A DNA stretch of 64,000 nt from Spirochaetota bacterium (GTDB taxonomy: Bacteria > Spirochaetota > UBA4802 > JAFGDQ01): contig JAZDKB010000004.1 in assembly GCA_043803405.1 (NCBI GenBank), forward strand, positions 64,001-128,000. The letters are read 5' to 3'. This document shows, in pieces, positions 15,090 to 20,354 of this stretch. Below the pieces are notes generated by a model that saw only the letters and a program-made list of their open reading frames with translations, did not search any database and had not been told where the DNA came from. The position numbers and the translations under genes were made by a program. Numbering within the stretch: the first letter of the stretch is position 1; each line of letters starts with the position of its first letter.

Positions 15090-16715
15090 TTAAAAAAATA
15101 AGGACGCATATATTCCAAATTTAGGATATAAACTGCTGTCCTCATAACTCTTATTAAGAGTCGTGCTCCGGGCTTTGTGATATTCCAGCGCTGTAAAAAA
15201 ACCGAAGTTATATTTGTTTTTATAAGTGTAGATCAGATAAACAGCGTTTGTATGGGAATCGCTCCGGTATTTGAACAATTGATCTTTTGCTGAATCAATG
15301 CCGGGAACTCCTGTAATGTCATTTCCAACTTCATATCCGTTGTACGAGTTTTTAAACTTTATTCTTCTGTAAATATAGCTATATCGTATATTTATATTTT
15401 CAAGATATATGGTTTCTAAGTTAAACCTTAGTATCCCTATCTGGGTATTTATTTTTATTTTTGGTACTGTATTTGCGTTATTTTCAGAATCATCAGTTGA
15501 ATCATTGTATTTATTACCCATAAAAGAAAAAGGATCAAATTGTAATTCGATTTTTAAAAAATGGTTCTGATAACTGGCGCCAAAACGATATGAGGGTGCG
15601 AAACCATAGTAACCGTTATTTTTGCTTCCATCCCGGATCCCCATGTTTAAACTGTCATAATACCATTGCAATGTGCATCTGCCATAATCTAATCCTGTTT
15701 CAAATGATATGCTGGGATTTAAACCATCATCCGGTGTTTTAAGGTCTCCTGATTTCCATTTGTATTTTTCCCATGGGACCAGGAACATATTAGGATCGAT
15801 CATGATGCCCAGGTGGAAATAATCGACCTTAAATCTATAGTAAATCTGTGTCTGGGTTTCTTCGTGGACAGAGTAGGGCATTGGGGCGCTCCCTGTGAGA
15901 AATATATGCTGGTAACCGAATATACCCGATGAGTACTCATTCTGCAAAATAGGTGTAAGATTGTTATTCCTGGAATTGGATGAGCCATATCTTGATCCGT
16001 ACGAAAACCAGTATCCGAGTGAAGTATAGTTTTTATATATCTGGGGTACGGCATAGAATTGCTGATATGTGTTATACTTATCAATACGCTCCCTGCCTGC
16101 TTTAATCCTGTCCAGTTCGATCTTGATCTGCACTGAATCATTCAGCATTTGCTGAGGAAAAACTTTTATTGTTTTTGCTTTACCTTTTTGAGTTTCTAAA
16201 TCAATAACCGGGCATAATCTGAAAGGATATGGATGCACGAATTCATAATTAATATTGCCATTATTATTAAAATTAATTTCCTTGCTGATTTTTTTAATTT
16301 TTATTTTCCAGATATTTTCTTTTGAGATTAAAACCTCGTGTCCGTCCAGGGTCAAAAAGGAAATATCGTTTTCGGAATAATCGATCGGCCAGCCTTCAAT
16401 AAGATTAACAATTTTATTATTCTGGACTGTGTCGATCTGGACTATATCTTCAAGTTCGTTTTTCTGAATCTGTATATAGGGAAAACTGTCTATTGAATAA
16501 GAGGTAAAATAAATTATTTCATACCTGGGGATCTCTTTAAATTTACCCTCCAGGGTTAAGAGTGTAATCTTTGATTTTTCTACTTTTAAAATGACTCCAA
16601 GTTCTCTTTCACAGGAAGAAACATAAAGTCCCTGTATATTTATAGCATATAGCGCTTCCGGAATAAATATTAATAGAAATATTAATATTATATATTTTTT
16701 AAAAAATAAGTTCAA
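15090..16715 (-). CDS. Uncharacterised outer-membrane protein (paralog B; start moved to TTG 16715)
   Basis: MNLFFKKYIILIFLLIFIPEALYA signal peptide, parallel to its paralog; amphipathic beta-strands; C-terminal FGIYASLFF. Confidence 0.6.
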   Translation of the reverse strand: MNLFFKKYIILIFLLIFIPEALYAINIQGLYVSSCERELGVILKVEKSKITLLTLEGKFKEIPRYEIIYFTSYSIDSFPYIQIQKNELEDIVQIDTVQNNKIVNLIEGWPIDYSENDISFLTLDGHEVLISKENIWKIKIKKISKEINFNNNGNINYEFVHPYPFRLCPVIDLETQKGKAKTIKVFPQQMLNDSVQIKIELDRIKAGRERIDKYNTYQQFYAVPQIYKNYTSLGYWFSYGSRYGSSNSRNNNLTPILQNEYSSGIFGYQHIFLTGSAPMPYSVHEETQTQIYYRFKVDYFHLGIMIDPNMFLVPWEKYKWKSGDLKTPDDGLNPSISFETGLDYGRCTLQWYYDSLNMGIRDGSKNNGYYGFAPSYRFGASYQNHFLKIELQFDPFSFMGNKYNDSTDDSENNANTVPKIKINTQIGILRFNLETIYLENINIRYSYIYRRIKFKNSYNGYEVGNDITGVPGIDSAKDQLFKYRSDSHTNAVYLIYTYKNKYNFGFFTALEYHKARSTTLNKSYEDSSLYPKFGIYASLFF

Positions 16716-18345
16716 AAGCGCCACCGTATTCACATTTTTGTAATATTTTATTATCTTTATGATCAAAAAAATTATAATTATAAATATTATAGTAATAATT
16801 GAAGGTTGCTTTGATCGCCACATAATCGCTGAATCGGTTATGTAAATAGACTCCGGCATTATAATGCTGAAATTTTATATTATTTTTGTATTGTGGATAA
16901 ATCTGGCTGCTACCTGTCAAATCAAGGGCTTGAAAGGTCTCGCTGTATTTCCCGGACAGTATAATTCCATCAAGTCCAAGTTTTAACTCATTTGTTAAGC
17001 TGTAAATCAGTCCTGCTCTGAAATAGAATGAATTCAAACTGTATTTTTTTAAAGGGGTTGAATCATCATCCTCATATTCGGAATAGCCATTGACCTGTTT
17101 ATTATCTCCGGCATATCGTACAAAAACATTTTTCTTAATATCTCCGTTGCTGTCATTATAATCAGATATAGAAAAAATAGCCTTTATTTTCAGGTCTCCT
17201 TTATAGTAAATAAATCTTACAGTCGGGGATGTCTTTGGGGAAACGATTTCTCTTACATGGTTATTAACGTTCAAAGCATATATGGGATAGAACATGCCTA
17301 GAGAAGCGGAATATGGACCGTAATCAATTCCTAATAAAAGCATGTAATTATAATTAATCTCAACATAGGGGTTGTAGGAATATAATAGACTATTTGAATA
17401 ATCCAGATTATTCTTATCCTGTGTATAAAACCTGGTTCCTGCTGGCAGAGAACCGAGATTCATGTTCCCTATAAAAAGAGTATTGAAGAAATGAGTCTTA
17501 ACATCAGACTGCAGTATATTCGTATCAAAAAGTTCAGGAAGCCACTCTGAATCTGTTGTACCAACGGTTGTTTTACTCTGAAAACCATAGGCTTTGCCTG
17601 TAGACCATTGCATATACAGATCACCATTATTACTTTCTTTAAATCCGGCTTTCCGAAATAGTAAATTGCTTCCGAGTTTAAAATCCTGATCAAATATTAA
17701 AGGTTTTGCGTATAGATAGGTTCTTTCCTGGTAGCTGTATATTTTTATCAAATTATCCCGGGTTTTAATTAAATATTTACTAATATTTATTTTACCTTTA
17801 AATACCCTTGTAGGGTAAATAGTCAGTCCAGAAATGATTTTGCCTGTTCCCTGTGTGTTCTCATTCTCAGTATTTAAGATTACTTTTTTATAATTTGAAA
17901 GCTGCATACTGTCATTTTTTTTAAAATCATATTTTCTGAGTTTAACTATGTCTGTGAGTTTATGAACATGAATCTTGCCGCTTAGATCAAAAAATATAAC
18001 CATTTCATCTATCATTTGTATAGGAAAACCGGTAAAGGAGGGCGTGTCATTATCGAGTAGATATACATCCCGCAAATATTCCGCAATCTGTGAATTCAGA
18101 TCAATTTTTTCTATTGGATTCAAAACTATATTGTATATATATAAAACTTTTATACTTTCTTTATCTATTTTATTAACTTTGCCTTCCAGTGTCAGCACGC
18201 TTAAAGATGTTTCGTCAACACCTAATATAAATCCGGAATAATTCCGTTCTTTATTATCAGTAAAATTATAAATTTCAAATGCTGCGGCATTTATTTGAAA
18301 AATTATAATAATCAGAACTGATATTAGTATTTTAATAAGATTCAT
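16699..18345 (-). CDS. Uncharacterised outer-membrane protein (paralog A)
   Basis: Signal peptide; aromatic beta-strand-rich C-terminal half; C-terminal YGGAFELIF. Confidence 0.65.
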   Translation of the reverse strand: MNLIKILISVLIIIIFQINAAAFEIYNFTDNKERNYSGFILGVDETSLSVLTLEGKVNKIDKESIKVLYIYNIVLNPIEKIDLNSQIAEYLRDVYLLDNDTPSFTGFPIQMIDEMVIFFDLSGKIHVHKLTDIVKLRKYDFKKNDSMQLSNYKKVILNTENENTQGTGKIISGLTIYPTRVFKGKINISKYLIKTRDNLIKIYSYQERTYLYAKPLIFDQDFKLGSNLLFRKAGFKESNNGDLYMQWSTGKAYGFQSKTTVGTTDSEWLPELFDTNILQSDVKTHFFNTLFIGNMNLGSLPAGTRFYTQDKNNLDYSNSLLYSYNPYVEINYNYMLLLGIDYGPYSASLGMFYPIYALNVNNHVREIVSPKTSPTVRFIYYKGDLKIKAIFSISDYNDSNGDIKKNVFVRYAGDNKQVNGYSEYEDDDSTPLKKYSLNSFYFRAGLIYSLTNELKLGLDGIILSGKYSETFQALDLTGSSQIYPQYKNNIKFQHYNAGVYLHNRFSDYVAIKATFNYYYNIYNYNFFDHKDNKILQKCEYGGAFELIF

Positions 18346-19241: not shown

Positions 19242-19385
19242 TCATCCTTTCTTTCTTTTTTTCAGGTTCTCATCCTGAGAACATTTCCTGCTTATTCAGG
19301 TAGAAACTCCAAGTTTCGGTAATAGCCATCTGTTTAGAATAAACCACCCGATTATAATAAGAATTAAGATATATTCCGGTTTCAT
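19242..19385 (-). CDS. Putative 47-aa single-TM selenoprotein (UGA at codon 30); not in ORF track
   Basis: RBS AAGGAGA; MKPEYILILIIIGWFILNRWLLPKLGVST-U-ISRKCSQDENLKKRKKG; UGA at 19298-19296 followed by a perfect 7-bp hairpin. Confidence 0.7.
19266..19282 (-). promoter_or_regulatory. Bacterial SECIS-like hairpin of the microprotein
   Basis: GUUCUCA-GGA-UGAGAAC with the apical loop about 20 nt 3' of UGA. Confidence 0.65.
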
Positions 19386-19521
19386 GATATTTTAAATCTC
19401 CTTTTATTATTTTTATCTGACAAACCAAAGCTGGGGGAGAAACCGGCGCGATAGCACCGAAAATATCCTCCCCATCATTTATAATTTTTTTTCTGGAATA
19501 TGAATTAAGTAATATATAAAT

Positions 19522-19824
19522 TTAACAATGAGCGCCATTATTGATCGTAAAACCTTCATTATAGGCTGTTTTGTAGAAATCTATTTCTAAAGGTGAATTG
19601 CCGCCTATCATGCCTATGGTTTTTTCATCAATTATGATCTTTACTTTATCGAAATTGTACAGCTTATCCTTTGTGTCTTTTGACTCATCCAGAGCCATCC
19701 CCAGATTGGGTCCGCCTCAGCCTATTCCTGCTACATAAAGTCTAAATGCAGGTTCCTTATAATCGGATTTTTCCAGTAGTTCACTAAGCCGAATCTTTGC
19801 TTCGTTGGTTATGTTGATATTCAT
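19522..19824 (-). CDS. HesB/IscA-like selenoprotein, 100 aa (Sec36); not in ORF track
   Basis: RBS AGAGGAG; MNINITNEAK...RLYVAGIG-U-GGPNLGMALDE...EIDF...GF...HC; the G-U-GGP.LG.ALDE context is typical of HesB-like selenoproteins; UGA at 19719-19717. Confidence 0.9.
19682..19696 (-). promoter_or_regulatory. Bacterial SECIS-like hairpin of the HesB-like gene
   Basis: GGCUC-UGGAU-GAGUC with the loop starting 25 nt after UGA; shares CUC(A/U)GGAUGAG with the neighbouring gene. Confidence 0.6.
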
Positions 19825-19858
19825 AATGTGCTCCTCTTTGTAATTATTTTTTATCTAT

Positions 19859-19886
19859 TTATCATATTATATTGATAATATGATAA
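19859..19886. promoter_or_regulatory. 12-4-12 inverted repeat, candidate ArsR operator
   Basis: TTATCATATTAT-ATTG-ATAATATGATAA between the arsR stop and the HesB-like RBS. Confidence 0.5.
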
Positions 19887-19902
19887 TAATGGCCAAAAAA
19901 AA

Positions 19903-20178
19903 TTATGATTGTAAAATCTTAATTATTTCCTTAACCCGTTTATCTACTACTTCATAGCACGTATTAACCCCGTCTTTTCTGGGTACTATTATACCTCTGT
20001 TTTTTAATACTGCCAGATGCTGTGAAACCGTCGACTGCGGGAGCTTAAGCTTTTCAACCATTTTGTTGACATTGCATTCATATTCGGCCATCAACCCCGT
20101 GATCAGTTTTAATCTTACAGGATGCCCGATGGCTTTTAATATTTCACTGTCTTTGTTAAAATCGATTGGTTTACTCAA
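19903..20178 (-). CDS. ArsR/SmtB family transcriptional repressor
   Basis: LKAIGHPVRL, QSTVSQHLAVLK..GI...RKDG...Y; two Cys (ECNV, TCY). Confidence 0.9.
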   Translation of the reverse strand: MSKPIDFNKDSEILKAIGHPVRLKLITGLMAEYECNVNKMVEKLKLPQSTVSQHLAVLKNRGIIVPRKDGVNTCYEVVDKRVKEIIKILQS

Positions 20179-20354
20179 AGCCTGCCCCTTTTTATCATTT
20201 ATATATCTATATATTACAATATTATAATATACTTGTCAAGTAAATATTTCGAAAAATACCCAGGAAAGCGCCTCAAAATTACTTTACAAATAAGGGGATA
20301 CTAATAAAAACGTAATCATAAATAAAAAAATACTATTATAGTACAGGGACTTTT

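Follow-up and report, generated by a model that had tools for sequence, protein, structure and literature searches.

The window, a 64,000-nucleotide stretch of DNA from a Spirochaetota bacterium, carries on its minus strand, at 19242..19385, a small gene, recognized by its frame, translation and homologues, for a single-pass membrane protein of 47 amino acids with an in-frame UGA at codon 30 and a cysteine at codon 35. Comparison of homologues makes it very likely that this UGA is read as selenocysteine (Sec) and that the product is a selenoprotein, because TGA and Cys codons alternate at this position, the downstream Cys is kept, the genome encodes the Sec machinery, and a SECIS-like hairpin past the codon covaries. 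The family itself is already a predicted selenoprotein; what is new here is its unit with an arsR gene and a HesB-like gene, together with its fusions to thioredoxin.

The small gene and its in-frame UGA codon

The sequence-only reading had described a ribosome-binding site, an ATG, one transmembrane helix, a UGA followed by ISRKC and a basic tail, and all of these were found at the positions claimed. The ribosome-binding site AAGGAGA (19397..19403, minus strand, assigned from the sequence) lies 11 nt 5' of the ATG at 19385, from which the frame runs through 29 codons to the TGA at 19298-19296 (minus strand), the predicted Sec30, and then through ISRKC and the basic tail to a TGA at 19244-19242. 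The last residue of ISRKC is Cys35 (19281..19283, minus strand), the conserved partner of U30 in a U-x4-C arrangement. A transmembrane helix running into a W-x5-W-x-LP motif was predicted for codons 3-24 (19314..19379, minus strand) by AlphaFold2, hydropathy and the family alignment, and it is the single hydrophobic helix of the protein, with a top 19-residue Kyte-Doolittle mean of 1.88. The AlphaFold2 model, used solely for the limits of the helix (residues 3-24), had a pLDDT of 88-89 across residues 1-20 and, as a whole, a pLDDT of 73 and a pTM of 0.37; residues 25-36, carrying U30 and C35, form a low-confidence loop. In the family alignment, the conservation of W-x5-W-x-LP-x2-G-x2-T in the helix equals that of the Sec and Cys positions, with part of it accounted for by the search patterns. 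No second copy of the gene was found in the window's own genome.

A contig from an RNA run (X1) spans 19250-20206 with zero letter differences from the window, which for that run excludes misassembly as the source of the TGA. The flanks of the arsR, hesB-like and small genes were nearly without cover in this run, which had been selected using the same stretch and whose contigs come with neither strand nor start and possibly include DNA. Two sister runs contained next to none of the words of the stretch.

The codon at the UGA position was compared in 104 distinct loci, which are what is left of 110 after removal of four duplicates and of L035 and L036, two loci with TGA that the pattern had missed. 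TGA was found in 92 loci, TGC in nine and TGT in three, so that homologues with Cys aligned to the UGA, proposed earlier as a check, do exist (12 of 104), and not one of the 104 stops there with TAA or TAG. Conservation also extends past the UGA, as a Cys follows the Sec position within seven residues in every one of the 104 loci and with the exact x4 spacing in 94, in tails of 8-140 amino acids (median 23). The 80 wider loci in this set are the top 80 of 354 loci when scored by their match to the read-through protein, and this ranking favours loci conserved past the UGA. The same-order relatives contributed 30 loci out of 31 matches, 28 with TGA and two with TGC. Three genomes of relatives (G003, G024 and G010) have extra divergent copies of the small gene (L035, L036 and L037, respectively), which do not lie by hesB and keep the TGA. 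In two database homologues, P0027 and P0020, the Sec position is taken by Trp or Arg, which may be an artefact of gene callers reading TGA as Trp or a single-base decay of the UGA.

The genes of the Sec machinery, which the sequence-only reading had asked to be confirmed, are present in the window's genome: selA, selB, selD and the tRNA-Sec gene (selC) all scored over their cut-offs and lie together on contig C26. The selD gene on this contig (L004, G000:C26:6414-7340) itself holds an in-frame TGA, and SelD is likely a selenoprotein. Among the 41 genomes of the order, selA was found in 31 and the small gene in 27, and all 25 relatives carrying the TGA form have selA. Of the ten genomes without a selA match, G033 (84% complete) alone has the small gene, in a Cys form, and its hesB neighbour likewise has Cys; in another genome, G012, Cys is found in the small gene and TGA still in hesB.

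A hairpin with a perfect 7-bp stem and a GGA loop about 20 nt past the UGA had also been claimed, and it is indeed present. This bacterial SECIS-like element (19263..19290, minus strand) has the stem GTTCTCA/TGAGAAC at 19282-19266 and the loop at 19275-19273, beginning 20 nt past the UGA, and its minimum free energy (MFE) fold has 6 bp plus a lower stem of 4 bp. Folded alone, it reached -8.3 kcal/mol (z -1.94), a value equalled by 10 of 200 shuffles. The bSECIS model, as set out in the accessible part of PMC13188914, specifies a loop of 3-9 nt with G in position 1 or 2, a stem of 4-16 bp, a spacing of 16-37 nt and an MFE of at most -7.5 kcal/mol, and the hairpin agrees with all of these terms (3-nt GGA loop, 6-7 bp, 20 nt, -8.3 kcal/mol). 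In a screen looser than the published model, with loops of 3-14 nt and no energy cut-off, a SECIS-like loop was found in 86 of the 92 TGA loci, where shuffling of synonymous codons gave an expectation of 44.8, with a mean folding z of -1.74; the corresponding values for the Cys loci were 6 of 12 against 3.2, and -0.73. In an alignment of 38 TGA loci, chosen mostly from the window's lineage so that kinship inflates the counts, an 8-pair stem was 76% paired, with 37 cells in which both sides had changed; none of 500 shuffles reached either value, and six slid registers were all lower. The hairpin is thus modest alone and stands above chance by its conservation across homologues.

If the UGA were a true stop, the gene would encode a 29-residue membrane peptide, and the sequence downstream would be an RNA element or a tiny frame restarting at an ATG. 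An ATG follows the TGA immediately in 71 of the 92 TGA loci, and database forms of 29-30 amino acids end at the Thr before it, as expected of such a peptide; five of these entries (P0014, P0017, P0028, P0035 and P0040) bear out the earlier expectation that gene callers would truncate the protein at this point. Sec insertion is always incomplete, so some truncated product is likely in any case. Stop and restart is nevertheless unlikely, since 21 of the 92 TGA loci, including the window with its ATA, have no ATG after the TGA. Against a true stop there are, further, the absence of TAA and TAG from all 104 loci, the unbroken frame of the 12 loci with Cys, the synonymous variation of the downstream Cys codon (TGT in 44, TGC in 41) and the occurrence of selA in every one of the 25 TGA-carrying relatives, and we regard termination as highly improbable.

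Occurrence of the family and earlier records

Beyond the order, a profile of the small protein matched in 71 of 122 genomes of the class, a strict pattern found 354 loci in a species-level genome set, and the family counts 957 protein clusters. The titles of the best 80 of the 354 loci include Spirochaetota, deltaproteobacterial lineages, Planctomycetota, Acidobacteriota, Chloroflexota, Calditrichota and Methylomirabilota. A query of the ESM Atlas with one of the natural Cys homologues gave one unnamed cluster at 0.88, with Planctomycetota as the commonest phylum, which we take as a lead only. Two proteins, P0004 and P0019, were dismissed as repeat artefacts.

The family is listed among the known predicted selenoproteins in Data S1 of deep-Sep (PMC12013277), where all six of its entries consist of a hydrophobic helix, [IV]LP[KR][LM]G[IV]xT, U-x4-C and a charged tail. 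By inspection, no sequence difference sets the window protein apart from these six entries, and their common motif LP-x2-G-x2-T-U-x4-C suggests that all belong to the same family. Entries 3 and 4 of the file, both family members, adjoin a HesB-like entry; if Data S1 follows genome order, the pairing of the small gene with HesB may occur in other lineages too. The family label does not occur in the deep-Sep main text (PMC12013277) or in the rows of Table S1 that were searched, and the accessible parts of the deep-Sep material give no function or gene context for the family. The family is likewise absent from the accessible text and table of a 2026 catalogue of 119 prokaryotic selenoprotein families (PMC13188914), and the term 'lovleyi' is absent from the accessible main texts of PMC9312934, PMC2398784 and PMC5029168. 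A literature search, outside of which lay subscription papers and several supplements, found no paper on the function of the family.

Searches of sequence databases gave a similar picture. The window protein matched no Pfam or NCBIfam model, and 34 aligned members gave scattered weak matches, of which the best was Arabinose_trans (E 0.0056, six members). The best match of the small protein among PDB sequences had an E value of 0.25, and plasmids gave no match. A likeness to the DUF2892/YgaP-like transmembrane family (PF11127), some members of which end in LG[IV]STC, did not hold up as kinship: DUF2892 has two helices and a CP motif, hhalign gave 5.9% over six columns, with column-shuffled controls reaching up to 1.3%, and PF11127 had no match among the 34 small-protein family members.

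Neighbouring genes and thioredoxin fusions

In the window, three genes follow one another on the minus strand: arsR, a hesB-like gene and, last, the small gene. The first (19903..20178, minus strand) encodes an ArsR/SmtB-family regulator (NF033788, 77.6 bits, cut-off 55) with two Cys, in ECNV and TCY; linked ArsR proteins from three lineages have a common Cys in C-[NHD]-V. The second (19522..19824, minus strand) is a HesB-like (IscA/HesB) selenoprotein gene with the motif GIG-U-GGP and its UGA at 19719-19717, over the cut-off for PF01521 and below the cut-offs of its NF038090 and TIGR01911 matches. It had been missed in a plain ORF list, and of its 29 best matches in relatives, 27 have TGA.

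A HesB-like gene lies directly upstream of the small gene in 25 of the 30 relatives' loci, with 19-184 nt between the matches, and arsR was found in 6 of the 30. At the level of the class the link to HesB was seen in 13 of 28 loci, and in the 80 wider loci it was seen in four, all of them duplicates of same-order loci, and in none of the 76 non-duplicates. A complex prediction for the natural Cys pair of G033, HesB-like and small protein, gave a score of 0.00, which counts neither for nor against an interaction of the two. Elsewhere in the window's genome, at G000:C43:66989-67740, another arsR precedes an IscA/HesB-like gene that has Cys (QSCCG) and a tail rich in Cys, and about 2.4 kb further on there is a weak match to thioredoxin. 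Downstream of the small gene are a YhhN-family membrane protein (PF07947, 18433-19092, minus strand), which did not stand out among the recurring neighbours of the small gene, and, at 15090-18345 on the minus strand, two adjoining, similar-looking AT-rich ORFs of 589 and 548 amino acids, Phe-ended, like outer-membrane proteins.

Two palindromes precede the genes of this unit. A perfect 12-4-12 palindrome (19859..19886, unstranded) covers the -10 box of a promoter-like site 5' of the hesB-like gene, and an imperfect one (20210-20231) overlaps a sigma-70-like promoter, TTGACA-17-TAATAT (20210..20239, minus strand). Related AT-rich palindromes over -10 boxes before arsR and hesB are present in L009, L010, L012, L014 and L021, and are perfect in L014. 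On their sequence, the two palindromes of the window are candidate ArsR operators, a case weakened by the overlap of the palindrome with TATAAT. Between the hesB-like gene and the small gene there is a GC-rich hairpin without a U-tail (19434..19473, minus strand; -22.5 kcal/mol, z -2.53), in a gap of 136 nt 5' of the small gene that is much shorter in most relatives. No terminator-like site was called at this hairpin, which may be a stabiliser, a processing site or an attenuator.

Within 1.5 kb of the 80 wider loci, we found ArsR at 25, a TlpA-like redoxin at 8 and thioredoxin at 6, compared with ArsR or thioredoxin in about 0.25% of random windows of the window's genome; many of the ArsR loci are close kin (18 also share NikR), and their counts therefore overstate independent events. 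NikR was near 18 loci in all, zf-HC2 anti-sigma-like genes near 12, a cytochrome bd subunit I-like gene near 8 and RND efflux parts (HlyD/AcrB) near 3, in other lineages. At the search depth used, 48 of the 80 loci had no ArsR, thioredoxin, HesB or TlpA within this distance. The feature that recurs across phyla near the small gene is thiol chemistry.

The genetic link to thioredoxin takes the form of overlapping or adjoining genes in several phyla, and of fusions. In L009 and L021, the stop of the small gene overlaps the start of a thioredoxin gene. Seven sequences have the small protein fused to a WCGPC thioredoxin, namely three of the 80 loci, one of them with Sec, and four database proteins out of six longer ones found, of which P0146 scored over the TIGR01068 cut-off. 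The other two of the six, P0149 (zf-HC2) and P0150 (asparagine synthase), look like accidental joins and were left uncounted. There is no Met where thioredoxin begins in P0146 and P0147; in five of the seven fusions a Met is retained close to that point, and these could be lost stops. The named fusion loci are all from Planctomycetota, and seven is a count of sequences, for which a thioredoxin tree gave no number of fusion events. The Sec-containing fusion (L040:2273-6667) has ArsR and RND efflux genes around it and, upstream, genes for a PerR/Fur-like regulator and a rubredoxin-like protein as well as a peroxiredoxin-like frame. In the genome of the window, thioredoxin is on a different contig from the small gene.

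Proposed role and its alternatives

The sequence-only reading had called the protein redox or metal-binding, and the thioredoxin fusions would favour redox. We put at about even the chance that the small protein is a membrane-tethered Sec30/Cys35 redox pair that thioredoxin recycles and that belongs to a thiol-stress module. Under this proposal, SelB and tRNA-Sec would read the UGA by way of the hairpin, and the helix would insert with its N-terminus out and its C-terminus in, a topology suggested by the charge bias (a mean net charge of -0.4 over residues 1-6 and a mean of 4.9 Lys+Arg on the C-terminal side) and by the C-terminal position of the fused thioredoxins. U30 and C35 would therefore be at the cytoplasmic face, the U-x4-C stretch being part of a flexible loop. 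An oxidant close to the membrane, such as peroxide, sulfane sulfur or an electron acceptor in the membrane itself, would turn the pair into a selenenylsulfide ring, which cytoplasmic thioredoxin would reduce again. The Cys-bearing ArsR would repress the unit at the palindromes until thiol stress, and the small protein and the HesB-like selenoprotein would then be made together.

Against a redox relay, the spacing in U-x4-C is not among the standard ones of oxidoreductases, and metal binding would suit a loop with two Cys equally well. The protein could instead be a membrane-anchored ligand of a metal, a metalloid or an Fe-S cluster, in which Sec30 and Cys35, perhaps of two protein molecules, would bind a soft metal or a cluster and so anchor the HesB-like A-type carrier or supply it, while ArsR senses metal. 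The HesB-like gene directly upstream in most of the relatives' loci, the joint switch to Cys of both genes in G033 and the invariance of both the Sec/Cys and the Cys position are in keeping with such a ligand, as are the membership of ArsR in a metalloregulator family and the NikR and RND efflux genes near some of the wider loci. The link to HesB is, however, limited to lineages, as the class-level and wider counts indicate, the small gene of G012 has changed to Cys while its hesB keeps TGA, and the fusion partner is thioredoxin rather than a metal or cluster protein; a metal ligand is possible, but we consider it on the unlikely side. Small single-helix proteins also serve membrane complexes such as oxidases and pumps, and the small protein might be an accessory or regulatory subunit of one, such as a cytochrome bd-like oxidase, an RND pump or an anti-sigma factor, with the W/LP/G face of the helix binding and U-x4-C acting as a redox switch. 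The conservation of the helix motif exceeds the needs of a plain anchor, and the cytochrome bd, zf-HC2 and HlyD/AcrB neighbours would suit such a role. Part of that motif conservation is explained by the search patterns, though, no single membrane partner is shared by the different phyla, and neither the window nor the 30 relatives' loci have one close to the gene, which leaves an accessory subunit improbable.

Returning to the membrane-tethered redox pair, the nearest known systems are SELENOK and SELENOS, which, like the small protein in its proposed topology, have one membrane helix and no CxxU fold and carry Sec C-terminal to the helix, on its cytosolic side. In the accessible parts of the respective papers, SELENOK is described as forming an intermolecular diselenide (PMC9344019), and SELENOS is a proposed reductase with a Sec188-Cys174 selenosulfide (PMC3628699). 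The small protein differs in being far shorter and in having its Sec six residues past the helix, in mid-chain (30 of 47) and before the partner Cys; the window protein and the 34 members gave no SELENOK or SELENOS match in Pfam at E 0.1, and the likeness is an analogy only, with no kinship suggested. The HesB-like selenoprotein (TIGR01911/NF038090) shares the predicted unit with the small protein and has its own UGA, but it has an unrelated, soluble IscA-like fold, and the pairing was found in the window's lineage only; the function of HesB-like selenoproteins is described as unclear in the accessible part of PMC11097638. A fuller picture, in which a membrane selenoenzyme of fewer than 50 residues, a minimal counterpart of SELENOK and SELENOS, would pass electrons between cytoplasmic thioredoxin and a membrane acceptor in at least seven phyla, mostly anaerobic lineages, and would form a two-selenoprotein relay with the HesB-like protein in the window's lineage, we regard as unlikely in its entirety.

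The surprise to specialists is limited by the family's being already recognized as a predicted selenoprotein. Though common where it is found, the family lacks a model in Pfam and NCBIfam and is clipped at the UGA by gene callers, and an annotation model for it is already within reach. The ArsR/HesB unit and the fusions to thioredoxin provide the first testable function for the family in the accessible literature, and the natural Cys versions make the small protein easy to express. If it is a true partner of the HesB-like selenoprotein, it would offer a way into the role and pathway of that long-orphan family.
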